Source: Ruminiclostridium sp. (GTDB lineage: Bacteria; Bacillota; Clostridia; Oscillospirales; Ruminococcaceae). Taken from it: DNA of 64,000 nt. A program made the position numbers and the translations under genes. Location: the NCBI GenBank assembly GCA_045602405.1, contig JAZSBN010000052.1:6193-70192 (forward strand). The letters are read 5' to 3'. The notes under the pieces were generated by a model. It was not told the DNA's origin. It searched no databases and saw nothing but the letters and a program-made list of their open reading frames with translations. Shown here piece after piece: positions 16,822-38,540 of this stretch (the first letter of the stretch is position 1; each line of letters begins with the position of its first letter).

Positions 16822-17454
16822 TTATAAAAAAGAAATTAGTTTTTCAGCAGTTATTTCCGATAATTCAACCTTGCCGTCAAACTCACACTTATATCCGCAA
16901 GCACTTATAAACCCGTTTTCACAGGTAAGGCATACTGCCTCGCCATTTTCAATAAGGCTGTCGGCGGAAAAAGCGGAAAAGCCCTCCTGAAAGCCCTTTC
17001 CTGTTAGCTTACCCCTGCTCTCCTTGATACACCAGAGACGGCATATCTCCCTATCCTTATCGTCACAGCTTCTTACACGCTCCATTTCTTCGGATGTACA
17101 GAATTTTTCCGCCGCACGAATTGTTATAGGGCGTATATGCTGGATGTCGATACCCGTTTCCTTCTCCGTAACCGTACACATCACTATATTCCCCGAATGG
17201 CTTATATTGAAGGATAAATCAATATTTTCCATAAAGGGCTTACCGTGACCCCTGAAGCTGAATACAGGACAAGCATCGATACCGTAATCCTTTTTCAGGA
17301 TATAACGCAGGACTGCATAGGAAAAAGCGGAGCAAAGCTTAGCGTTAAGGCTTTTCTTATCGTCACAGTAACAACGCCTCTGCTCCGAAAGCAAAGGCGT
17401 TATACGTTCATATTCTTCTTCGGAGCAGTTGAATTTCAACCAATAAATTTTCAT
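16822..17454 (-). CDS. Sfp-type 4'-phosphopantetheinyl transferase
   Basis: GKP, FNISHSG, GIDIQ, WCIKES. Confidence 0.88.
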   Translation of the reverse strand: MKIYWLKFNCSEEEYERITPLLSEQRRCYCDDKKSLNAKLCSAFSYAVLRYILKKDYGIDACPVFSFRGHGKPFMENIDLSFNISHSGNIVMCTVTEKETGIDIQHIRPITIRAAEKFCTSEEMERVRSCDDKDREICRLWCIKESRGKLTGKGFQEGFSAFSADSLIENGEAVCLTCENGFISACGYKCEFDGKVELSEITAEKLISFL

Positions 17455-18533
17455 TGCATCAGTATACGCTCGTCACAGTATTCACATTCAAGGACATCGC
17501 CCGAACGCTTGAAGCTGTGAGGGAGATAATGCTCGGTATTGGTTATACACTTAAGATTTGTACAGCAGATATCCTTATGCTCCTCGCCCTTAAGAATAGG
17601 CCTCGGCATAAGCTTATAGTCAAGCATACAGAGTATAAGTGCCATACGGACATACATACCGTAATTAGCCTGCTTGAAATAAAGGGCACGGGGGTCGTCG
17701 TCCACCTCTACTGCAATTTCGTCAACACGGGGCAGAGGATGAAGAACGATAAGCTCCTTTGACGCAAGCTTCATTTTCTTTGCATCGAGGCAGTATACAT
17801 CCTTCTGTGCCTCATATTCCTCGGGGGTAGCGAAACGCTCACGCTGAATACGGGTCATATAGAGTACGTCAAGCTTCGGAATAGCCTCCTCGAGAGTTCT
17901 GTACTCCTCGTAGGTCTTTCCGCTTGCGGAGATATAGTCCTTGATATAGGTGGGAACCTTAAGCTCCTCGGTGGAGATAAGTATGAAGTGATTTCCGTTA
18001 TAGCAGGACAGTGCCTTTAAGAGAGAATGTACGGTTCTGCCGTTTTTAAGGTCGCCGCAGAAGCCTACTGTAAGGTTTTCGAGACGTCCCTTTTCTTCCT
18101 TAAGAGTAAGAAGGTCGGTAAGGGTCTGTGTAGGATGAAGGTGACCGCCGTCTCCTGCGTTTATAACGGGGCAGTCAGCCGAAAGTGCCGCCGCCTTCGC
18201 CGCACCCTCAAGGGGATGACGCATTACAAGTATATCGGAATAGCCGCTTACTATTTTTGTTGTGTCCTTTAGGTTTTCACCCTTGGCTACTGAAGAAGAG
18301 GAAGGATTATCAAAGCCGATTATTCCTCCGCCGAGACGAAGCATAGCTGTCTGGAAGCTCATCTGTGTACGGGTAGAAGGCTCATAGAAAAGCGTACCCA
18401 TTATCTTACCGCGGCAGGCTCCTGCATAAACAAGAGGAGCAGTCATAATCTCATGAGCAAGATTCAGAATAGTGTTCCACTGGGACGGGGAGAAATCGTT
18501 AAGGTCGATAAGGTTGGAAATATTATCCTGCAT
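17451..18533 (-). CDS. pyrB: Aspartate carbamoyltransferase with C-terminal PyrI-like Zn domain
   Basis: FYEPSTRT, HPTQTL, GDLKNGRTVHS, YMTRIQRER, HPLPR; C-terminal CTNLKC...CEYC. Confidence 0.95.
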   Translation of the reverse strand: MQDNISNLIDLNDFSPSQWNTILNLAHEIMTAPLVYAGACRGKIMGTLFYEPSTRTQMSFQTAMLRLGGGIIGFDNPSSSSVAKGENLKDTTKIVSGYSDILVMRHPLEGAAKAAALSADCPVINAGDGGHLHPTQTLTDLLTLKEEKGRLENLTVGFCGDLKNGRTVHSLLKALSCYNGNHFILISTEELKVPTYIKDYISASGKTYEEYRTLEEAIPKLDVLYMTRIQRERFATPEEYEAQKDVYCLDAKKMKLASKELIVLHPLPRVDEIAVEVDDDPRALYFKQANYGMYVRMALILCMLDYKLMPRPILKGEEHKDICCTNLKCITNTEHYLPHSFKRSGDVLECEYCDERILMQ

Positions 18534-22835: not shown

Positions 22836-25232
22836 TTAGATAATGTGCCAGATATCTCTTGCGTAGTCTGTAACTGCACGGTCTGCAGAGAATACGCCTG
22901 CGCCGGAAATGTTGGCGAGGGACATCTTGTTCCACTTTTCGATATCCTTGTATACTTCTCTTGCCTTAGCCTGTGTATTGTGATAGCTGTCAAAGTCAGC
23001 AAGACACATATACTGGTCAACGTATCTGATAGCGTTGGCAACTTCGTCGAAGGTTGCACCGTTGAAGCCCTTGTACATAGAGTCGATAGCGGCTCTGATT
23101 GTGGGGTTATGGTCATAGTAGCCGTCGGGAGAATATCCGTTCTGCTTCATAACGTTAACCTCGGGAGTAGACATACCGAAGATAAAGATATTATCATCGC
23201 CAACCTGCTCGTGGATTTCAACGTTAGCACCGTCGTAGGTACCCATTGTAACAGCACCGTTGAGCATGAGCTTCATGTTACCTGTACCGCTTGCTTCTGT
23301 ACCTGCGAGAGAAATCTGTTCGGAAATTTCAGCGGCAGGCATGAGCATTTCGGAAAGAGTTACACGGTAGTCTTCAAGGAATACTACTGCAAGCTTTTCA
23401 TTAAGCTTGGGGTTCTTCTTGAGTTCTTCGCCGATACACCAGATAAGCTTGATGATCTGCTTAGCCATGTAGTAACCGGGAGCTGCCTTGGAGGCAAAGA
23501 TATAGGTCTTGGGAACAAAGTTAGCGTCGGGGTTATTAAGGAGATAGTTATACTCGGAAATAATGTTGAGAGCGTTGAGCTGCTGACGCTTATACTCGTG
23601 GAGACGCTTAACCTGTACGTCGAAAATACTGTCGAGGTTGAGCTTTGCGCCTGTTGTGTTGAGTACATACTTAGCGAAATCAGCCTTGTTCTGTCTCTTT
23701 ATATCAGCAAGCTTCTTAAGAACAGTGCTGTCGTTTTCGAAGAGTCTGAACTTTGAAAGATCCTGACCATTCTTCTTGAAGCCGTCTCCGATACATTCGG
23801 AAAGAAGCTTTGTAAGTCTGGGGTTGGACTGGAGGAGCCAACGACGGTAAGCGATACCGTTAGTTACATTTGTGAACTTTGTGGGCTTATCCTTGAATTC
23901 GTCGTTGAATACGCTGTCCTTGATAATCTCACTGTGGAGCTTGGAAACGCCGTTAACGGAATGAGAACCGTCAACACAGAGATTAGCCATTCTGATCTTG
24001 TTGTTGTTGAAGATAGACATACGTTCAACAACCTCGCCAGGAAGTCTGTTGGAAAGACCTTCACAGTAACGGCGGTTGATTTCACAGATGATAGAATAGA
24101 TTCTGGGGAGAATTCTTGCAATAAGATCCTTATCCCACTTTTCGAGAGCCTCCGCCATAACTGTATGGTTTGTATATGCAAAGGTATTGCATACGATATG
24201 CCATGACTTGGACCAGGAATATCCGCACTCGTCGAGGAGTATTCTCATAAGCTCGGGAATAGCAAGAGTAGGATGAGTATCGTTGATGTGGATAGCAACC
24301 TTATCGTGAAGGTTATCGAGAGTACCGTAGCAGTTCATGTGTCTCATTACGATATCGCCGATAGAAGCCGCACACATGAAATACTGCTGACGGAGACGGA
24401 GAGCCTTACCCTCAAGGTGGTTATCGTTAGGATAAAGAACCTTTGTAAGAGCGTGAGCGATGTTGTTTGCACCGAGAGCGTTAGCGTAGTCGCCTGCATT
24501 GAATGCACTCATATCGAAGGACATACTCTTTGCGCTCCAGAGACGAAGCTTGGAAACACCCTCGCTGTCGTAACCGGAAATATACATATCGTAAGGTACT
24601 GCAAGAACGGGTACATAGTTTACATGAGAAATATGGTGGTATTCATTATCCCAGTATTCCTTTACTTCGCCGTCGAAATGAACCTCAACAGCCTGTTCGG
24701 GAACGGGAGTAATCCAGGATTCGCCGCCGGGGAGCCAGTTATCGGGAAGCTCTGTCTGCCAGCCTTCCATGATCTTCTGCTTGAAGATACCGTATTCATA
24801 AAGGAGAGAGTAGCCTGTTGCAGGATATGCACAGGTAGCCATACCGTCCATATAGCAGGCGGCAAGACGACCGAGACCGCCGTTACCGAGACCTGCGTCA
24901 GGCTCTTCGTCATAGATTGTTTCAATCTTGATGTTATAATCGTCCTTAAGAACCTTTTCAACCTCTTCATTCATTTCGAGATTGTAGAGAGATGTCTTTA
25001 AGGAACGACCCATAAGGAATTCCATGGAGATGTAGTAAACCTGCTTCTTGCCTGTGGAATTACATTTTGTCATGAATGAGTGACGCTTTTCTTTAAGATA
25101 AGCAACAACAATGCTGGAAAGCGCTTTATAAATCTGAGTACTGTTAGCCGCTTCGGGATCAACTCTGAAATCAATTAAAAGCGTATCCTTTAACTTCTGA
25201 CTTAATTCTTTCGCCGTAAATGGTGAGTTCAT
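22836..25232 (-). CDS. glgP: Glycogen/starch phosphorylase
   Basis: GLGNGGLGRLAAC, HINDTHP, EASGTGNMKLMLNG. Confidence 0.97.
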   Translation of the reverse strand: MNSPFTAKELSQKLKDTLLIDFRVDPEAANSTQIYKALSSIVVAYLKEKRHSFMTKCNSTGKKQVYYISMEFLMGRSLKTSLYNLEMNEEVEKVLKDDYNIKIETIYDEEPDAGLGNGGLGRLAACYMDGMATCAYPATGYSLLYEYGIFKQKIMEGWQTELPDNWLPGGESWITPVPEQAVEVHFDGEVKEYWDNEYHHISHVNYVPVLAVPYDMYISGYDSEGVSKLRLWSAKSMSFDMSAFNAGDYANALGANNIAHALTKVLYPNDNHLEGKALRLRQQYFMCAASIGDIVMRHMNCYGTLDNLHDKVAIHINDTHPTLAIPELMRILLDECGYSWSKSWHIVCNTFAYTNHTVMAEALEKWDKDLIARILPRIYSIICEINRRYCEGLSNRLPGEVVERMSIFNNNKIRMANLCVDGSHSVNGVSKLHSEIIKDSVFNDEFKDKPTKFTNVTNGIAYRRWLLQSNPRLTKLLSECIGDGFKKNGQDLSKFRLFENDSTVLKKLADIKRQNKADFAKYVLNTTGAKLNLDSIFDVQVKRLHEYKRQQLNALNIISEYNYLLNNPDANFVPKTYIFASKAAPGYYMAKQIIKLIWCIGEELKKNPKLNEKLAVVFLEDYRVTLSEMLMPAAEISEQISLAGTEASGTGNMKLMLNGAVTMGTYDGANVEIHEQVGDDNIFIFGMSTPEVNVMKQNGYSPDGYYDHNPTIRAAIDSMYKGFNGATFDEVANAIRYVDQYMCLADFDSYHNTQAKAREVYKDIEKWNKMSLANISGAGVFSADRAVTDYARDIWHII

Positions 25233-25441
25233 TGTCTTTTTCCAACCCTTCTGATTTTATAAATATGCTTTTACAATTATAAACCAAAAAACTAAAAATT
25301 TCAATAGTTTTTCTTATTTCGCTGAAAATTTACACCTTATTTACAATAATTTTCGCATTTTCCGAAGCCAAATATGGCTATATGCATAATTTTTAACCCG
25401 ATTTTTTATAGAAAATAACGATATAATATTACAGTAAATCG

Positions 25442-26290
25442 CTAAAATTCCAGTTCTTCACCTGTCTGAAGGTACTGAATTCTGTCTCCAAGCTTGGATT
25501 TAAGTATACCGTAGCCTGTAAGCCCTGTACAGTGGCAGGTGTAAATTGTACCCGTCTCTATAGCTTTAAGCTCATTTATGGTTTTGTCGATATAATCTAT
25601 GCTGCAGCACAGCTTTTTTGTCGAGGAGCCCATAAGATGAAAGCCTCCGATAACGGAAAGTATCGGTACATCGGGAAATCTCATATTTACCGTTCTTAAA
25701 ACGTTCACAATGCCGCAGTGAGAACAGCTTGAAATAACCACACAGCCCTTATCGCGGCGCTTATCGGGGAAAAATACGAAAAACACCTCGTGGGAGAAGT
25801 CATCCCTTATGACCTGTCCGTCGCTTCGCATATACAGCCGCTTATCCTCGCAGTACATTGAATAATCAAGGTATTCGTTGGACATGGCGAAAACACCGCT
25901 GTCTATTTCCTGAAACCTGTTATAGAAAATGAAATTTTCCGAATGTTCTTCACGGAGATAGGAAATCTGACCTATCGGAACACGAAGAAAGCTCTGCTTT
26001 ATATAAAAATCATTATCCGCCGCCTTCTTTGCATAAATCTCAGCGTCGGGATTTATTTTGAGGAACGCCTCTATACCGCCTGTATGGTCGTAATGATTAT
26101 GTGAAATAAGAACCTTTGAAACCTCTTCTACAGGTACCCTCATTTTTTTTGCATTTGCAATAAACTTATCGGAAGCGCCTGTATCAATGAGATATTTTTC
26201 TCCTGCATTTTCAACATAAAGACAAAGGCCGTGCTCCGCCTTAAGCTTTTCGGCGGCACTTGTATTCTCAATAAGAGCAACTATTCTCAT
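25442..26290 (-). CDS. MBL-fold metallo-hydrolase
   Basis: SHNHYDHTGG, CSHCG, GGFHL, HCTG. Confidence 0.9.
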   Translation of the reverse strand: MRIVALIENTSAAEKLKAEHGLCLYVENAGEKYLIDTGASDKFIANAKKMRVPVEEVSKVLISHNHYDHTGGIEAFLKINPDAEIYAKKAADNDFYIKQSFLRVPIGQISYLREEHSENFIFYNRFQEIDSGVFAMSNEYLDYSMYCEDKRLYMRSDGQVIRDDFSHEVFFVFFPDKRRDKGCVVISSCSHCGIVNVLRTVNMRFPDVPILSVIGGFHLMGSSTKKLCCSIDYIDKTINELKAIETGTIYTCHCTGLTGYGILKSKLGDRIQYLQTGEELEF

Positions 26291-26291
26291 A

Positions 26292-27110
26292 TTACGCCTT
26301 CCCCTTTACATCAATAAATACAATTTCGGGACGATTGAACACCCTCGGAATAACTGCATTCAGTATATTTCTCTGAAGACCGCGGCTTACTATCATTTCA
26401 GTATTGTTTTCGGTGTATCTTCCTCCTGCATATTCAGGGAAAAGTCCCTGATTCGGAGCATATACACCGTTCAGAACAAAAGGAATCACAACCTGACCGC
26501 CGTGAGCGTGCCCCGAGAGTACAAGGTCAAAGCCTTTTCCCGAAACCTCGGGAAACTGCTCGGGATAATGATTTATAAGTACGTTGTAGCAGTCCTCCGA
26601 AACAGCGGAAAGAGCATTCTGATACTCCTCTGTACCGCTTATTCCCTCTATACCGATAAAACGCACCCTGTTCCCTTTTATCTCCATGTCGGAATATTCC
26701 CCGTCCAGAACAGTAACGCCTCTCTGAGCCATTTTCTGTTTAAGGCTTTCGCTGTCGCCGCGCCATATTTCGTGATTTCCTATGGAGTAGAAGCAGTCAT
26801 ACTCCGAAGCAAGCCTTTCCACCAGCAGGTCGGAATTACCATCACCCCAATGTTCATCATAAAGGTCGCCGCCGAAAATTACTGCGTCTGGATTATATTT
26901 CTTCACGGAATCAACCAGCTCGCACATATCCTTGCCGTATCTGCTGTTATGTACATCGGAAATGAAGGCCAGTCTTACTCCTTCCCCGACCTTTTCACTT
27001 TCAAGGGTATAGCTTACCTCGGAAAGTGCAGTACTGCACACAAAGGGATAAGCTATAAGAATAACCGCCGCCGCTATAGTCAGAATACGCTTTTTTCTTT
27101 CAGTCATCAC
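26292..27110 (-). CDS. Calcineurin-like metallophosphoesterase with N-terminal TM
   Basis: SDVH, GDLY, GNHE, GHAHGGQ. Confidence 0.9.
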   Translation of the reverse strand: MMTERKKRILTIAAAVILIAYPFVCSTALSEVSYTLESEKVGEGVRLAFISDVHNSRYGKDMCELVDSVKKYNPDAVIFGGDLYDEHWGDGNSDLLVERLASEYDCFYSIGNHEIWRGDSESLKQKMAQRGVTVLDGEYSDMEIKGNRVRFIGIEGISGTEEYQNALSAVSEDCYNVLINHYPEQFPEVSGKGFDLVLSGHAHGGQVVIPFVLNGVYAPNQGLFPEYAGGRYTENNTEMIVSRGLQRNILNAVIPRVFNRPEIVFIDVKGKA

Positions 27111-28111
27111 TTCAGTTCAACAAATCCGACCTTCTTATATACCTTCTGAAGGGTTCTTCTGGAAGCCTTATACGCCTTTTCGGCACCAAGCTTCATGCAA
27201 TCGTTGATGTATTTCTTGTCAGCGATTATCTTGTTGAATTCAGCCTGCATGGGAGCGAGCATATCGGCTGTCGCCTCACCTACAGCAAGCTTGAAATCGC
27301 CGTAGCCCTTACCCTTGAATTCCGCTTCTATTTCCTCGAAGGACTTATCGGTAACTGCGGAATAAATGGACATGAGGTTATTTATTCCGTCCTTACCCTC
27401 ACGGTAGCATACCTCTGTTTCGCTGTCGGTAACGGCTCTCTTGAATTTTCTTATAATTGTATCCTTATCGTCAAGGATAGAAACGCTCGCATTGGGATTC
27501 TCGTCGGACTTGCTCATTTTCTTTGCAGGATCCTGAAGGGACATGATTTTTGCAGTAGTCTTTGTGATGTAAGGCTCAGGCATCACGAAGGTCTCGCCGT
27601 AAACCTGATTGAAACGCTGTGCGATATTTCTCGTAAGCTCAAGATGCTGCTTCTGGTCAACGCCTACAGGAACAAGGTCAGCCTGATAAAGAAGAATATC
27701 CGCCGCCATAAGAACGGGATATGTGAAAAGACCTGCATTGATATTTTCTGGGTGCTTTTCGCTCTTATCCTTGAACTGAGTCATACGGGAAAGCTCACCG
27801 AACTGGGTATAACATGAAAGTACCCATGAAAGCTCAGCGTGTGCAGGATTATGTCCCTGTACAAAGGCGATAGACTTTTCGGGGTCTACGCCCATAGCGA
27901 GAAGAAGCGCATAGCTTTCTACAATCTGCTTTCTGAGCTTCTGGGGATCCTGTCTTACGGTTATGGAATGAAGGTCAACGATGCTATATGCACAGTCATA
28001 TTCATCCTGGAGCTTTATCCAGTTTGTGAGAGCTCCAAGATAGTTACCGAGATGAGGGGTATTCGTAGGCTGAATACCGCTGAAAATACGCTTTTTTCTT
28101 GTTTCTTCCAT
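27107..28111 (-). CDS. trpS: Tryptophan--tRNA ligase
   Basis: SGIQPT..HLGNY, YPVLMAADIL, VPVGVDQKQH, KMSKS. Confidence 0.97.
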   Translation of the reverse strand: MEETRKKRIFSGIQPTNTPHLGNYLGALTNWIKLQDEYDCAYSIVDLHSITVRQDPQKLRKQIVESYALLLAMGVDPEKSIAFVQGHNPAHAELSWVLSCYTQFGELSRMTQFKDKSEKHPENINAGLFTYPVLMAADILLYQADLVPVGVDQKQHLELTRNIAQRFNQVYGETFVMPEPYITKTTAKIMSLQDPAKKMSKSDENPNASVSILDDKDTIIRKFKRAVTDSETEVCYREGKDGINNLMSIYSAVTDKSFEEIEAEFKGKGYGDFKLAVGEATADMLAPMQAEFNKIIADKKYINDCMKLGAEKAYKASRRTLQKVYKKVGFVELK

Positions 28112-28141
28112 TTTATTTTACCAAACCTTTCTTATGTACTA

Positions 28142-29335
28142 TTATTTATATAATGTTTTCGCCGCCATGGCGAGTCTGTCCGTACCTTTTTCTATTTCCT
28201 CGTCGGAAACTCCCGTGTAATTTATACGGAAGGAGAGAGAAGGAATTCCTTCCTCCGGCACAAAGGCTGTCCCGGGGACAATAAGAACCTTATTATCGAG
28301 AGCCTTTCTGAAGAAATAATTTATATCGCCCTCGGGTACTGTTCCGTAAAGGAAGATACCGCCGTCAGGCTCCGTAAAGCTTACGGATGAAGGCATTTTA
28401 TATTTCAGGCAGTTCAGCATAAGATCCGACTTGCGGCGGTAAAGCTCACATATCTCATAAAGATATTCGTCGTAATCATACCTTGTCAGAAGCCTGTGTA
28501 TTATCCTCTGGGATAAAGTATCTGCGTGGAGCGTTGCTCCCTCAAGGAGACATACTGCACGGGGGATAATATTTCCCGAACAGCAGAGATAACCCACCGA
28601 AATTCCCGGAGCCACAGAAGCACAGTAGCTTCCCGCATAGAACACTATACCCTTCTTGTCCATTGAGCGGATAGAAGGAAGGTCTGTACCCGCGAAACGA
28701 ATATCGCTGAAGGAGGCGTCCTCAACTATGAGAACGTTATGCCTGTAGGCAATTTCAAGAATTTCCCTTCTTCTTTCCTCGCTCATCGTGATACCCGTGG
28801 GATCGGAAAAATCGGGGCATACATATATAAAGGCAGTCCTCTGGTTTTCAGTAAGCGCCTGTTCAAGATAAGCGGAGCTCATACCGTCGCTGTCCACGGG
28901 CACGCCCACAAGCCTTGCGCCATAACTGCGGAAGGTATTCATAAGCTCGGCAGGACAGGGATTAGGACAGATTACTGCGTCACCCTCGTTACAGATAAGC
29001 CTCGACAGGATATCGAGAGACTGATGAACTCCCGAGGTAATAATAACATCATCATCGTTCCAGTTCAATATGCCCTTTGAATAAAGCCTGTCCTTTATTA
29101 CGTCCCTTAAGGGCTTATAGCCCTCGGCAGGAGTATGTCCCAGCACGGAAAAGGCGTCGTTTTCAAGAAGCTCACAGGTTATCTCCCGTATGAACTCCGA
29201 AGGAAGAGCCTCCGCCGCAGGAGCCGAGCCTGCGAAGCTGATAAAGGAGGGATCCGTGGCATATTGCATTATCTCCCTTGTAAGAGAGGGCCGGATTTTC
29301 TGTATTCTGTAGGAAAAAGCATTCATATTCCTCAC
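28142..29335 (-). CDS. Class I/II aminotransferase-fold protein lacking the PLP lysine
   Basis: ISFAG, DPTG, IVED, APG..G.Y, FRINY; GSYCASVAPGISVGY in place of GSFSK..APGLRxG. Confidence 0.85.
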   Translation of the reverse strand: MRNMNAFSYRIQKIRPSLTREIMQYATDPSFISFAGSAPAAEALPSEFIREITCELLENDAFSVLGHTPAEGYKPLRDVIKDRLYSKGILNWNDDDVIITSGVHQSLDILSRLICNEGDAVICPNPCPAELMNTFRSYGARLVGVPVDSDGMSSAYLEQALTENQRTAFIYVCPDFSDPTGITMSEERRREILEIAYRHNVLIVEDASFSDIRFAGTDLPSIRSMDKKGIVFYAGSYCASVAPGISVGYLCCSGNIIPRAVCLLEGATLHADTLSQRIIHRLLTRYDYDEYLYEICELYRRKSDLMLNCLKYKMPSSVSFTEPDGGIFLYGTVPEGDINYFFRKALDNKVLIVPGTAFVPEEGIPSLSFRINYTGVSDEEIEKGTDRLAMAAKTLYK

Positions 29336-29564
29336 GGCCTTTCACAATAATATAATCATGATTATAATATCATATTTTTCAGAATATTGCAAGTATCGCA
29401 ATAAATTATGTAATTATTTATTTCCCTTGATAACGGCCTTCCGGACAAAATTGAGGCAAAAATGAAATTTTTATTTTAAAAAATTTCATAAAATACTTGA
29501 CAAATCGCTTAAAATGTATTAAATTCTTATTGTAAGTTTATTACTGAAAGAAAGGACAACCACT

Positions 29565-30248
29565 ATGGAAAAGATTTATACAGGTAAGACCAAGGACGTC
29601 TTCAAGCTTGATAACGGCAACGTTATGCTCAAGTTCAAGGATGACTGTACAGGTAAGGACGGCGTTTTCGATCCCGGCGAAAACTCGGTAGGACTTACTA
29701 TCGACGGTATCGGTAAAGCTAACTTAAAGACCTCCATCTACTACTTCGAGCTCCTTAAGAAGGCAGGCATCAAGACTCACTATGTAAGCGCTGACGTTGA
29801 AAACGCTACTATGGAAGTTCTTCCCGGAAAGGTATTCGGCCACGGTCTCGAGGTTATCTGCCGTTTAGTTGCGACAGGAAGCTTTATCCGCAGATACGGC
29901 GAATACATCAAGGATGGCACAGTTCTTGAAGGCGGTTACGTTGAATGTACATTCAAGAACGACGAAAAGGGCGATCCCCTCGTAACAAGCGAAGGTCTTG
30001 CTGCTTTAGGTGTTATGTCCGAAGAAATGTTCGAGAGCATGAAGGAACAGACCTTAAAGATCACAAAGATCGTTGCTGACGACCTTAAGACAATCGGTCT
30101 CGACTTATGGGATATCAAGTTTGAATTCGGCTACAACAATGACGAGGTTATCCTTATCGATGAAATTGCTTCCGGTAATATGCGTGTATACAAGGACGGA
30201 AAGATCGTAAACCCCGTAGACCTCACAAAGCTTATTCTTGAAAGATAA
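29565..30248 (+). CDS. purC: SAICAR synthetase
   Basis: GKTKDV, LEVICR, DIKFEFG, LIDEI. Confidence 0.93.
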
Positions 30249-30259
30249 ATTATATAAAA

Positions 30260-30285
30260 ACGCCGTCGTAACGACGGCGTGTTTT
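30260..30285 (+). terminator. Terminator after purC
   Basis: ACGCCGTCGT/ACGACGGCGT followed by GTTTT. Confidence 0.75.
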
Positions 30286-30386
30286 CTATGCACACTTCGC
30301 CAAATCAGCACGCTGTACTGTTGACAATTTTCTCAAAAAATGATAAAATGATAGAATAGATATTTATATTTTACGGAGAAAAAAAT

Positions 30387-32078
30387 ATGAAGAATAAATT
30401 AGCGAGCAAAATATTCAGGGATTTTTTCAATGATATCGAAAGAATTGAGCTTAAAATGAAGGATCTTGCCGAGCTTATAACCGAGAAAATTCCTGCCATA
30501 GCGGAAGAGGTAGCTATCGGAAGGCTTATCAGTCATTTCTACGCACCGCCTATGTTTACAGAAGAAGATAACCAGAACGTGTCCATAGAGTTCTATGCAA
30601 GCAAGGAAGGTCACGGAGCCGAAGCCCTCAACTATGAATATCTTACAGCCGAAGGCGGTAAGGTGTGCTTTTCTGTCTATCCCTTACCGGACCATGTATG
30701 GGATGAAGAGGATAAAGAAGAAATCCAGTTTTTATGCAGGAATTTATACATAATCTGCGGAAGGGCAAAGCTTCTCGCAGTAATAAAAAATTCTGTTACA
30801 AGAGACGGATATACGGGACTTCCCAATGCAGGCGGCTTCATACGAATGGGCAGCCGTCTCAGGGCGGAAGGAAAGCTCTGTAATTATACAGCGATGTATG
30901 TAAACCTTAAGAATTTCAAGTGTATAAACAGTCAGTTCGGAAATAAATCAGGCGATAAGGTTATAAGGGAATATGCCGATATCGTGAGACAGCTTGTCAA
31001 TAAGGACGAAATGGTAGCTCGTCTCGGCGGTGATAATTTTACCTTACTCGTAAAAAAAGAACACAGGGAAGAGATAATCAGATTCCTTTCAGATGTAAAA
31101 GTAACGCTTCACAGCGAATTCGGCGACCGTGTTATCAGCGTTCCTTCAAGAATAGGAGTTTATGATATAAAAGAAAAAGACCACATGCCTGTGGTCATGA
31201 ACTATATTTCTGCCGCTATAAGCTCCGCAAAGCATAGTCCTACGAAAAATGTAATCGAATTCAATCAGGAAATCATGCAGAGGCTCACAAGTCAGCAGCA
31301 GGTTACAGCAGACTTTCCCGACGCAATCAAAAACCGTGAATTTATTGTATACTACCAGCCTAAGGTCGATCTGAAAACAAATGAAATGTGCGGCTGTGAG
31401 GCTCTTGTACGCTGGAACAAGGACGGAAGAATTATTCCTCCGGGAGAGTTTATCTCCGTACTTGAACAGGACGGAAGCATCTGTACTCTTGATTTCTATA
31501 TGCTTGACAGCGTCTGTCAGGATATAAAAAGATGGAAGGAACAGGGGCTTGAGCCTGTAACTGTTTCAGTCAACTTCTCAAAGATTCATCTCCATAACCC
31601 CAATATAGCGGATGATATCCTCGGAATAATAAATAAATACGAAATCGAAAACCGTTATATCGAAATCGAGCTTACCGAAATGTCAGATTATAATGACTAT
31701 GACGCCTTCAAGAAACTTGTTACTAAAATGAAGGACAGCGGAGTAATGACCTCTATCGACGATTTCGGTACAGGCTATTCCTCCCTCAATCTCCTTACAG
31801 ATTTCATGTTCGACATAGTAAAGCTCGATAAATCCTTTATCGATAATATCATAAAGAACAACAGTGCTACTGATGAAATTGTTGTCCGTAACATTGTCAA
31901 TATGCTTAAGGAGCTTGATATGAAGGCGATTGCAGAAGGCGTGGAAACTACTGAACAGGCCCGCTTCCTTAAGGATATCGACTGTAATGTAGTACAGGGC
32001 TTCCTTTACGATAAGCCTCTTCCGCCCGAGGAATTCGAAAAGCGTCTTGCTGCAAGAAAATACAATCACAACATTTAA
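30387..32078 (+). CDS. GGDEF-EAL protein, likely c-di-GMP phosphodiesterase
   Basis: TGLPN, RLGGDNF, YQPK, EALVRW, DDFGTGYSSL, AEGVET. Confidence 0.9.
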   Translation: MKNKLASKIFRDFFNDIERIELKMKDLAELITEKIPAIAEEVAIGRLISHFYAPPMFTEEDNQNVSIEFYASKEGHGAEALNYEYLTAEGGKVCFSVYPLPDHVWDEEDKEEIQFLCRNLYIICGRAKLLAVIKNSVTRDGYTGLPNAGGFIRMGSRLRAEGKLCNYTAMYVNLKNFKCINSQFGNKSGDKVIREYADIVRQLVNKDEMVARLGGDNFTLLVKKEHREEIIRFLSDVKVTLHSEFGDRVISVPSRIGVYDIKEKDHMPVVMNYISAAISSAKHSPTKNVIEFNQEIMQRLTSQQQVTADFPDAIKNREFIVYYQPKVDLKTNEMCGCEALVRWNKDGRIIPPGEFISVLEQDGSICTLDFYMLDSVCQDIKRWKEQGLEPVTVSVNFSKIHLHNPNIADDILGIINKYEIENRYIEIELTEMSDYNDYDAFKKLVTKMKDSGVMTSIDDFGTGYSSLNLLTDFMFDIVKLDKSFIDNIIKNNSATDEIVVRNIVNMLKELDMKAIAEGVETTEQARFLKDIDCNVVQGFLYDKPLPPEEFEKRLAARKYNHNI

Positions 32079-36233: not shown

Positions 36234-38540
36234 TTATTCTGCAGTTACCTTGCTCTGAGCCTTCTGCTTACGGTAAAGCTCTTCGAAATCGCTTACGCTC
36301 ATAGGCTTAGCGAAATAGTAGCCCTGGAACATATCACAGCCCATTTCTGTAAGGAAGCGTACCTGCTCCTCGGTTTCAACGCCCTCGGTTATAACGGGCA
36401 TTTCAAGCTGTTTCGAGAGTCCGATAATCATCTGAAGAATCTTCTTGCTTCGCTCCTCGTCCTCGGCCTTTCTGAGGAATGCCATATCAATCTTAAGTAC
36501 GTCAACATGAATATCCTTAAGCATATTGAGGGAGGAATAACCGCTTCCGAAGTCGTCCATTTCAACGATAAAGCCGTTCTGGCGAAGTCTTGAAATAAGC
36601 TCAAGCTGACGGTTAAAGTCCATAACGATAGCGGTTTCGGTGATTTCAAGCTTAATACTGGAGGGGTCTATATCGTACTTTTTGACCATATCCGTAAAAA
36701 TCTGATAGATATTCAGGAAGTAGAAGTCTCTCGGCGATATGTTTACAGAAATGTATACGTCATTGATTCCCGCGTCCTTCCACTTTTTAAGCTGCTTGCA
36801 GGCCAGCTCCCAGATATACTTGTCAACCTCGGAAATAAGTCCGTTCTTTTCAAATACAGGAATAAACTCGCCGGGCAGTATCTGTCCCTTTTCGGGATGG
36901 AGCCAGCGGATAAGAGCCTCGGCTCCGAGAAGCTTTCCGTCACAGGACATCTGAGGCTGGAGGTACATTTTAAGCTGTTCCTCACAGATAGCCGCACCAA
37001 GCTCGGTAATAAGCTCCTGCTCATGGCGGATATTTTCTCTGAGAGCCTCGTCGTAATAAGCAACACGCTTGTGATAATCGCCCTTTATTGAGCCTATGGC
37101 GAGCCTTGCTCGGTCGCACATTACTGTTACGGGAAGATTACGGTCGGTAATCTCATACACACCCAGATAGTTCATCATGGGGAAAACAACTGTCTTATTC
37201 ATGCAGTAGGAGAAGGCGGTCTGGGACTCCTCAAGAAACAGCTTTTCATCAAAGCTTTCCTTGTTCATAAGCACACCGAAGATATCGTTTCCTATACGTC
37301 CGCTTATAAGTGCACCGCTTATGCGATTCTTAAGCATATCCGCAAAGCTTATAAGAACACAGTCGCCTACGGTTGTACCGAAAAAGTCGTTTACCATCTT
37401 GAAATCCTTGATGTCGGAGCAAATAAGTATAAGCTGTTCATCAGGGAATCTTTCTATATATTTCTTCACCTTTTCACAGAAATACGCCTTGTTGTATATT
37501 CCTGTAAGGGGGTCGTGGGTTGCGAGATATCTTTCCTTTTTCTGCTTGTTGTACTCCTCTGTGCAGTCCTGCATTACAAAGTAACCGCCCTGAAGAAGCT
37601 TTCTGTCGTCAATCATTCGCTGAAGCTGAATCTTCAGGATAAATTCATCCTCGTCACGGAAGAAATGGCGGTTCACCGTAAATTCATTATTCTGGTTAAG
37701 ATAGCTGTTCTTACACCATTCATGGAGAGTTTTTCCCTCGGCGTCAACGAGAGGTCTTTCCTTGTCGAAAAGCTCCTCGGCGAAGCTGTTGCTGTAAAGG
37801 TCGGAGCCTTCGGCGTCAACAACGAAAATACCAACCGACATATCTCGGGATACCTTGAAGAGCGTGGTGGAAAGAAGCCGCTGAGGGGTATAGACAAAGG
37901 CACAGTAATAAATACACGCACCCTCCGCAACAAAGCCCAGTACGGAAAAGTCAAAGGGGAAAAAGATACAGAAGGCGTTGAAGCTTGCGAGAACCATAAG
38001 AAGAATTGCTACCATAAGATACTTCTTACGGTAAAATACGGGAGCGTGATAGCTTCTGTAAATAAGGCTTATAAAACAGAATACCGCAATCATCGCAATT
38101 ATTGCATAATGGATGAAGAAGAACGGAGTAATCTCAATCATGTAATAGGTCTCACCGAGAAATTCCGTTGCCTTGATAGAAAACTGATGTCGGAAAATGC
38201 TGTTGAATAAAAGAGAAATACAATCCGCACAAAGCAACAGCCTCATTGCATTTACTTTAACATATTTAGCGAAGGCTTCGCCTATGTATTCCACAGAGAA
38301 GCGGAAAAGATAGTAAAGCATCCAGTCGGCGGCGACAAAGTACAAGCTATAGGAAATGAGGCTTACAAGCTCATAGTTGGTAAAAAGTATTACCGTATTG
38401 ACGAGCAGTATCGCATATCCCATACAAAGTAATTTACGGACAGTCTTTGCAAGCCTATGCTTTTCCTTGCTTGTTTTCAAGACAAAGAACATCATCATAA
38501 CCTGCCCCAATAAAAGTAATGTTCCTATTAAAATCTTCAT
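36234..38540 (-). CDS. Multi-TM (HisKA_7TM-like) degenerate-GGDEF/EAL protein
   Basis: About 7 N-terminal TM helices, HDPLTG, RIGNDIF, EALIRW, DDFGSGYSSL. Confidence 0.88.
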   Translation of the reverse strand: MKILIGTLLLLGQVMMMFFVLKTSKEKHRLAKTVRKLLCMGYAILLVNTVILFTNYELVSLISYSLYFVAADWMLYYLFRFSVEYIGEAFAKYVKVNAMRLLLCADCISLLFNSIFRHQFSIKATEFLGETYYMIEITPFFFIHYAIIAMIAVFCFISLIYRSYHAPVFYRKKYLMVAILLMVLASFNAFCIFFPFDFSVLGFVAEGACIYYCAFVYTPQRLLSTTLFKVSRDMSVGIFVVDAEGSDLYSNSFAEELFDKERPLVDAEGKTLHEWCKNSYLNQNNEFTVNRHFFRDEDEFILKIQLQRMIDDRKLLQGGYFVMQDCTEEYNKQKKERYLATHDPLTGIYNKAYFCEKVKKYIERFPDEQLILICSDIKDFKMVNDFFGTTVGDCVLISFADMLKNRISGALISGRIGNDIFGVLMNKESFDEKLFLEESQTAFSYCMNKTVVFPMMNYLGVYEITDRNLPVTVMCDRARLAIGSIKGDYHKRVAYYDEALRENIRHEQELITELGAAICEEQLKMYLQPQMSCDGKLLGAEALIRWLHPEKGQILPGEFIPVFEKNGLISEVDKYIWELACKQLKKWKDAGINDVYISVNISPRDFYFLNIYQIFTDMVKKYDIDPSSIKLEITETAIVMDFNRQLELISRLRQNGFIVEMDDFGSGYSSLNMLKDIHVDVLKIDMAFLRKAEDEERSKKILQMIIGLSKQLEMPVITEGVETEEQVRFLTEMGCDMFQGYYFAKPMSVSDFEELYRKQKAQSKVTAE

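Follow-up and report, generated by a model that had tools for sequence, protein, structure and literature searches.

A selected, lysine-less aminotransferase-fold protein encoded directly upstream of trpS in Ruminiclostridium sp.

The locus described here lies in a 64,000-nucleotide (nt) stretch of DNA from Ruminiclostridium sp. (GenBank assembly GCA_045602405.1, contig JAZSBN010000052.1, positions 6,193 to 70,192; the whole stretch is referred to as the window), in which the gene directly upstream of trpS encodes a derivative of a trpS-linked aminotransferase. The protein is fold-intact, full-length, conserved in its clade and under selection, and is without the residues that define catalysis with pyridoxal 5'-phosphate (PLP), including the Schiff-base lysine (Lys). 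The gene and its surroundings comprise, in window coordinates:

28142..29326, minus strand: coding sequence of the Lys-less aminotransferase-fold protein, 394 residues plus stop (open reading frame (ORF) call, homologue starts, PF00155, AlphaFold2 and Foldseek)
28112..28141, minus strand: 30-nt spacer between the aminotransferase-like gene and trpS, without a terminator-like site (27-36 nt in relatives)
27107..28111, minus strand: trpS, tryptophan--tRNA ligase, 334 residues (TIGR00233, E = 8e-105, above the cutoff)
26292..27110, minus strand: YaeI-like calcineurin-type metallophosphoesterase gene, its start overlapping the trpS stop by 4 nt
25442..26290, minus strand: metallo-β-lactamase (MBL)-fold hydrolase gene, the last of a conserved four-gene block, 1 nt after the metallophosphoesterase gene
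29364..29392, minus strand: promoter-like site (TTGCAA, 17 nt, TATTAT, with an upstream TG), about 35 nt ahead of the start codon, a consensus match only

The common strand, the short spacer, the lack of a terminator and the conserved gene order are those of members of one operon, and the 30-nt gap, the 4-nt overlap and the 1-nt gap agree with a preliminary description of this DNA, which had placed the gene 30 nt upstream of a trpS coupled to two hydrolases. Counted from a GTG at 29335, the ORF (28142..29335, minus strand) has 397 residues, the length given in that description. The homologues are all of 393-395 residues with the N-terminus MNAFS, and the ATG at 29326 has GAGG 5 nt ahead of it, so that the coding sequence is most likely 28142..29326 and the GTG probably lies three codons too far upstream. 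The claim of a full-length ORF thus stands, whereas the residue count is probably 394; residue numbers below refer to the 394-residue frame starting at ATG 29326.

The whole chain has the class I/II aminotransferase fold (fold-type I) of the LysN/kynurenine aminotransferase II (KAT II) type. Pfam assigns PF00155 alone (E = 2.2e-25, residues 63-388), residues 4-393 can be aligned end to end with stand-alone aminotransferases, and phmmer comparison with solved structures gave full-length matches to 1x0m/3aov (PH0207/KAT), 1wst (MsAT) and 2egy (LysN) with E values of 1e-56 to 1e-64, the best being 1x0m (E = 1.6e-64). The AlphaFold2 model, calculated with a 103-sequence alignment, has a predicted local distance difference test value (pLDDT) of 95.1 and a predicted template modelling score (pTM) of 0.93; its Foldseek superposition gave template modelling (TM) scores of 0.92-0.94 to 3aov, 1wst and 2egy, with 0.94 to 3aov (PH0207). 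No NCBIfam enzyme model scored above its cutoff, the nearest being the aminotransferase-like part of PdxR (E = 2e-59), which was matched at positions 87-447 only and below the cutoff. In agreement with the preliminary description, the Pfam scan revealed no helix-turn-helix (HTH) and no extra domain, and the N-terminus aligns with residues 9-70 of stand-alone enzymes.

Pocket residues were assigned by transferring LysN numbering through the phmmer alignments to 1x0m/3aov, 1wst and 2egy; the roles of the LysN residues (K238, R245, N174, Y205, Y125, Y70, D202 and R368) are those which we take to be established by structural work on LysN and KAT II. The window protein has the motif GSYCASVAPGISVGY, the Ala of which faces the Schiff-base Lys of GTFSKILAPGFRIGW in the aligned PH0207, MsAT and LysN (K238). 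The principal positions, all on the minus strand, are given below with their state in a clade of 34 sequences and in the homologues that retain the catalytic set (Lys-type), both defined in the paragraph on conservation:

28619..28621, minus strand: Ala236 (GCT), at the Schiff-base Lys site (LysN K238); Ala or Thr in 34/34 clade members, Lys in 116/116 Lys-type homologues
28598..28600, minus strand: Ser243, at the phosphate-binding Arg site (LysN R245); Ser in 34/34 of the clade, Arg in 116/116 Lys-type homologues
28802..28804, minus strand: Asp175, in place of the Asn that binds PLP O3' and the substrate carboxylate (LysN N174), SDPTG versus QNPTG; Asp in 34/34 of the clade
28952..28966, minus strand: PNPCP (121-125) in place of E-x-P-S-F/Y (EAPSY), with Pro125 as the counterpart of the ring-stacking aromatic (LysN Y125) and Cys124 new; P121, C124 and P125 invariant in 34/34 of the clade
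28709..28720, minus strand: DASF (203-206), with Asp203, the pyridine N1 partner, kept and N204, P205 and G207 changed (alignment, clade)
28226..28228, minus strand: Arg367 of FRINY, the α-carboxylate-binding Arg (LysN R368), retained; kept in every Lys-less lineage found

In the DASF region VEDASF faces VEDDAY, i.e. LysN D202 is kept as Asp203 and Y205 is replaced by Phe206, the latter residue being Phe or Tyr within the clade. Alignment to the solved structures thus confirms all of the substitutions named in the preliminary description (Lys to Ala at GCT 28621-28619, Arg to Ser, NPTG to DPTG, DxxY to DASF and ExPxY to PNPCP), together with the retained FRINY Arg and ISFAG; the GGNP loop that follows ISFAG, however, reads GSAP. 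Further changes concern residue 235 (a Ser making a phosphate-side contact), which is Cys in the window protein, and residue 233 (Ser/Thr), where the second branch of the clade has Gly. The position of the cross-subunit contact LysN Y70 is occupied by His64 in the window protein and by His in its branch, with the Tyr being kept in the second branch. Overall, the replacements would make the surroundings of the former phosphate site less positively charged and richer in acidic residues.

What remains of the pocket is limited. Asp203 and Arg367 are both retained in 34/34 clade members, and Arg367 is the sole substrate or cofactor contact common to all Lys-less lineages. The amino-acid binding proposed in the preliminary description is supported in so far as Arg367 is kept everywhere, but neither the Gly loop nor the side-chain-binding Arg equivalent to LysN R23 is conserved across the clade, and the proposal is accordingly weaker than it was stated. 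That description had also raised the possibility that another Lys occupies the site; no compensating Lys gained clade-wide was found near it, as read from sequence and secondary-structure or strand topology only. The one clade-wide gained Lys, K224, lies in a loop ahead of the strand 228-233 and, by topology, at the far end from the active site. The Lys of SAVVSKG, 5 residues downstream in one cluster, was considered as a substitute and rejected, as the position is not conserved (K/T/S/E/A). A metal site formed by the new cysteines C124 and C249 seems unlikely: by strand order the two lie on non-adjacent strands.

The altered pocket is conserved. When 5.8 billion proteins were searched, 120 homologues were listed, of which 116 retain K, R, N, F/Y and Y; the replacements of the window protein recur only in the four clusters closest to it (96, 64, 63 and 62% identity), and the next relatives, at most 59% identical to it, carry the full catalytic set in 116/116 cases. 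The preliminary description would have been undermined by close homologues that retain Lys, whereas the four nearest clusters are all Lys-less. Once these clusters were expanded, the clade comprised, with the query, 34 full-length sequences, taken from assemblies of different samples in NCBI, ENA and Logan. The runs in which the window sequence occurs are animal gut and faecal metagenomes. All 34 have 394 residues, A236 (Thr twice), S243, SDPTG and CP[N/D]PCPAE, and they form two branches that are 62-64% identical to each other. As 34 independent sequences from many samples carry the same substitutions, chance or sequencing error does not account for them; as full-length sequences in two branches share them, neither does recent decay.

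The ratio of non-synonymous (dN) to synonymous (dS) divergence was 0.041-0.062 within the first branch (the window, L002 and L009) and 0.067-0.085 within the second (L001, L005 and L013), compared with 0.015-0.053 for Lys-type pairs. Per pair there are 17-64 non-synonymous and 71-143 synonymous differences (one-sided Fisher test of pN<pS, p<=3e-33). There are no stops and no indels, with the length of 394 residues being kept in 34/34 sequences across lineages near synonymous saturation (dS about 2). The Lys-less protein has therefore been under strong purifying selection since the loss, and the check proposed in the preliminary description, i.e. whether loss of the Lys is conserved in homologues with a low dN/dS, gave a positive outcome (34 sequences, two branches, 0.04-0.09).

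Measured against the tryptophanyl-tRNA synthetase (TrpRS) encoded next door, the Lys-less protein underwent far more rapid change than its catalytic orthologues before it became stable. Relative to the Lys-type loci L003 and L006, the window is 91% and 82% identical in TrpRS and 59% and 55% identical in the aminotransferase, whereas Lys-type pairs of the same TrpRS divergence (81-95%) have aminotransferases that are 82-91% identical. The two branches of the clade have TrpRS proteins that are 99.5% identical over 193 residues (dS 0.7) and aminotransferases that are 64% identical. With L007 as the outgroup, Lys-less genes have a dN of 0.40-0.46 to it, compared with 0.17-0.18 for Lys-type genes. 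This burst of amino-acid change is centred on the former cofactor pocket: 213 alignment columns are at least 90% conserved in the 116 Lys-type homologues, 55 of these are altered in all five clade representatives, mostly to an identical new residue in both branches, and 9 of the 14 changed pocket positions are fixed identically in 34/34 sequences (S34, P121, C124, P125, D172, S174, D175, A236 and S243).

The trpS gene shows a pattern of its own. The TrpRS protein is 99.5-100% identical between the window (27107-28111) and L001, L002, L009 and L013, at a trpS synonymous divergence of 0.4-0.7 and dN/dS of 0.000-0.010. In L005 the aminotransferase is 89% identical to that of L001, yet the TrpRS is only 86-89% identical. 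This pattern may reflect unusually tight constraint, or recombination, at trpS.

Gene order is conserved in the related loci L001-L018, apart from the position in L014. The four-gene block (aminotransferase, trpS, metallophosphoesterase, MBL) was found in L002, L003, L006 and L009-L012, and in five of these (L003, L006 and L010-L012) it contains a Lys-type orthologue. L007 has a reduced block, in which a Lys-type aminotransferase stands beside a TrpRS of a different type (368 residues, 31% identical). In an independent survey of 80 metagenome loci picked by their TrpRS (61-89% identity; L019-L087 are among the related loci), 35 have a homologous aminotransferase upstream of trpS, usually 13-114 nt away, and the complete catalytic set is present in 35/35 of these. 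Since Lys-type orthologues sit in the identical gene arrangement, the linkage to trpS is ancestral, and because it is shared with catalytically intact orthologues it is not special to the Lys-less protein. The synteny with trpS proposed as a check in the preliminary description is thus conserved, but it does not single out the Lys-less form, which on the loci sampled is a derived minority in the trpS-linked family. Within the operon, the metallophosphoesterase of the window (26292-27110) is only 77% identical to that of L009 (10214-11029), compared with 100% for TrpRS, 95% for the aminotransferase-like protein and 95% for the MBL protein; within this conserved operon it is a gene that either evolves fast or has recombined.

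In Firmicutes, trpS is usually under the control of a T-box. No T-box or known leader RNA was found before trpS or the aminotransferase gene, either in the window (28112-29564) or at nine related loci (L003, L006, L007, L009, L012, L014-L016 and L018), and the leader is too short to leave room for a T-box. Rfam searches gave no family in 24000-31000 and none for a T-box or riboswitch in the window (E<=1). A weak match to STnc430 (30249-30370, minus strand; 26 bits against a cutoff of 47) lies between purC and a gene for a GGDEF-EAL protein; consisting of a GC-rich hairpin and a U run, it is probably just a terminator.

Loss of the Lys is not confined to the clade of the window. When 1.84 billion representatives were scanned exhaustively with HMMER, the Lys proved to be absent from several more of the nearest clusters, and four further lineages were recognised:

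P0121: Lys to Asn only; an MBL gene directly follows
P0122: Lys to Cys, Asp203 to Cys, Asn to Asp and Arg to Lys; immediately upstream of trpS
P0123: Lys to Asp, Asp203 to Asn, Asn to Glu, Tyr to Met and Arg to Asn, in 4 contigs; immediately upstream of trpS
P0130: Lys to Asn and Arg to Lys; immediately upstream of trpS

At the locus of the P0121 lineage (L014, 1162-3203) the MBL-fold gene stands directly after the aminotransferase-like gene, with trpS and the metallophosphoesterase gene absent from that position. Each of the four lineages is 40-53% identical to Lys-type proteins, compared with 32-41% to any other Lys-less lineage, and for P0121 and P0123 no close Lys-less relatives were found. 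In a neighbour-joining tree of the aminotransferases all Lys-less lineages group together, which may be long-branch attraction. In the TrpRS tree L018, the locus of P0130, falls in a different clade from the other Lys-less loci, which argues for at least two independent losses of the Lys; the order within the core group is unresolved, with weak bootstraps, and only P0130/L018 appears clearly separate from the other Lys-less lineages. The derived residues C124, P121 and E183 are common to Lys-less lineages and may leave room for a partly common ancestry.

We consider it probable that the window protein is a selected, non-catalytic pseudoenzyme. On alignment and gene order, it is the positional orthologue of the LysN/KAT II-type class I aminotransferase whose gene immediately precedes trpS in many uncultured Clostridia of the gut. 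In the lineage of the window, the Schiff-base Lys, phosphate Arg, O3' Asn and ring-stacking aromatic have disappeared, and the protein has passed through a burst of change in the pocket, followed by near constancy through purifying selection, with the fold, length and operon position remaining intact. Presumably the protein no longer binds PLP or transaminates, and selection would preserve a function that is independent of catalysis. The maintained non-catalytic protein of the preliminary description is, in this respect, supported by the clade-wide loss of the Lys and by the low dN/dS; the scaffold role and the connection with Trp or TrpRS put forward there are conjectural.

Several observations weigh against this interpretation. 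The dN/dS of the Lys-less genes is about 2-3 times above that of the catalytic orthologues, i.e. constraint is somewhat relaxed. Retention of both Asp203 and Arg367 may permit a non-covalent pyridine-type or carboxylate ligand, and the lack of a compensating Lys is deduced solely from the primary sequence and strand topology. The pocket residues diverge differently among the Lys-less lineages, which argues against one common new ligand. With respect to expression, about 60% of the gene, the Ala236 codon among it, is matched at >=99% identity by contigs from two gut metatranscriptome runs, though carry-over of DNA is possible; the contigs from these runs cover the aminotransferase-like gene and trpS, with none clearly bridging the junction.

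Because Lys-less forms recur in the trpS-linked family, a second, catalysis-independent role was probably already present in the catalytic ancestor. The protein could act as a dimer with a binding role that bears on the products or the regulation of the trpS operon, either as a small-molecule sensor, which would use the remodelled, more acidic pocket together with the retained Arg367, or through a protein partner, in the manner of MalY and MalT. Such a specific binding or regulatory mechanism, drawn by analogy, is tentative, and we would sooner expect it to be wrong than right. Somewhat more doubtful still is the proposal that aminotransferase-fold proteins upstream of trpS have a catalysis-independent function acting on tryptophan charging, for example as a regulator (responding to tryptophan or a keto acid) or a partner of TrpRS or of trpS expression, which would replace the T-box control absent here. 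If true, a role in tryptophan charging would explain both the persistence of the gene pair across two types of TrpRS and the survival of the protein through the repeated loss of its PLP chemistry.

Two alternatives that retain a link to catalysis seem to us improbable, to a similar degree. By analogy with LCB1/LCB2, the window protein could be a non-catalytic subunit that pairs with an active paralogous aminotransferase elsewhere in the genome. Active sites of fold-type I enzymes lie at the dimer interface and draw residues from both chains, and the preserved fold and full length, the strong purifying selection and the cross-subunit Tyr kept in the second branch would suit such a subunit; however, the branch of the window has His in place of that Tyr, no other aminotransferase homologue turned up in the 64-kb window or in the flanking DNA retrieved, and the positional orthologue in related genomes is itself catalytic, so that there is no sign of a duplication. 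Alternatively, the protein could be an enzyme with non-canonical chemistry, using another cofactor, Cys124 in the remodelled pocket, or non-covalently bound pyridoxamine 5'-phosphate (PMP) or PLP, as do the Lys-less sugar dehydratases ColD and E1. The joint loss of the phosphate Arg, the O3' Asn and the stacking aromatic argues against this, as do the Gly in place of Ser/Thr233 in the second branch, the variation between Ala and Thr at position 236 and the loss even of Asp203 (to Cys or Asn) in other Lys-less lineages. In its favour are the retention of Asp203 and Arg367, the P0121 lineage, in which the Lys alone is altered, and the invariance in 34 sequences of the new pocket residues C124, D172, S174, D175 and E127, which suggests that the pocket is still used.

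Explanations that dispense with a functional protein fare far worse, and both of those considered are excluded. A decaying gene, whose frame stays open solely to safeguard the expression of the essential trpS (its promoter, its translation or its freedom from polarity), would be in keeping with the position of trpS 30 nt downstream without a terminator or an obvious separate strong promoter, and with a protein that changes faster than the catalytic orthologues do. If selection acted against stops and nothing else, however, dN/dS would be near 1, compared with the 0.04-0.09 observed, and there are no indels in 34/34 sequences of 394 residues; we regard this account as very improbable. That the data come from metagenome-assembled genomes (MAGs) and metagenome assemblies raises the question of an assembly, sequencing or annotation artefact, or of a single recent mutation, but a multi-residue pattern that recurs in 34 sequences from NCBI, ENA and Logan and different samples, and in contigs from both DNA and RNA runs, makes the chance of this negligible.

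Understood as a pseudoenzyme, the window protein belongs to a known kind, that of the PLP-fold pseudoenzymes, most of which, to our knowledge, are either eukaryotic (LCB1, antizyme inhibitor) or form domains of MocR regulators. Less familiar is a bacterial aminotransferase that stands alone, has presumably lost cofactor binding and is kept under strong selection in an operon with an essential aminoacyl-tRNA synthetase gene. The protein has the fold, length, N1 Asp and α-carboxylate Arg in common with LysN, KAT II, PH0207 and MsAT (2egy, 2r2n, 3aov and 1wst), but unlike them it is without the Schiff-base Lys, phosphate Arg, O3' Asn and stacking aromatic, and its Gly-Gly-x-Pro carboxylate loop is altered. 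Its closest catalytic comparators are the uncharacterised orthologues from MAGs of related Clostridia (for example P0005, P0028 and P0058, labelled 'PLP-dependent aminotransferase family protein'), which have the same operon position, the same termini and 49-59% identity; these differ in keeping all catalytic residues and in a 2-3-fold slower protein evolution.

More distant precedents are instructive in different ways. LCB1 of serine palmitoyltransferase is a fold-type I protein without the PLP lysine that works only as a heterodimer with LCB2, and it resembles the window protein in being Lys-less and under selection; it differs in belonging to the α-oxoamine synthase subfamily and in having a known partner paralogue, none being seen for the window protein in the 64-kb window. 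E. coli MalY, a C-S lyase of aminotransferase fold, binds MalT and thereby represses the maltose regulon, an effect that does not depend on catalysis. By analogy only, it offers a precedent for a second, protein-binding regulatory role that could outlive catalysis, although MalY itself is catalytically active. The effector domains of MocR, GabR and PdxR have the same aminotransferase subgroup fold and use it for sensing instead of turnover, but the window protein does not have their N-terminal GntR-type winged HTH. Characterised MocR regulators, moreover, retain the Lys and bind PLP (PMC6522883).

A literature search for an aminotransferase-trpS operon, or for a Lys-less bacterial aminotransferase pseudoenzyme, found nothing relevant, and the aminotransferase-trpS gene pair appears to be undescribed so far. 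The pair is widespread in gut Clostridia, uncharacterised, and present there without a T-box on trpS. Since catalytic orthologues in the same operon position and several Lys-less lineages provide natural controls, the hidden function should be approachable by experiment. For annotation, the Lys-less proteins would be mislabelled by the automatic name 'PLP-dependent aminotransferase family protein'.

Two other features of the window deserve mention. At 17451-18533 (minus strand) a 360-residue protein combines both aspartate/ornithine carbamoyltransferase domains with a C-terminal match to the PyrI zinc domain (PF02748), and looks like a catalytic chain fused to part of a regulatory chain. Two GGDEF-EAL proteins are encoded within 8 kb of each other (30387-32078, plus strand, and 36234-38540, minus strand), one of them with an N-terminus resembling a seven-transmembrane (7TM) sensor.

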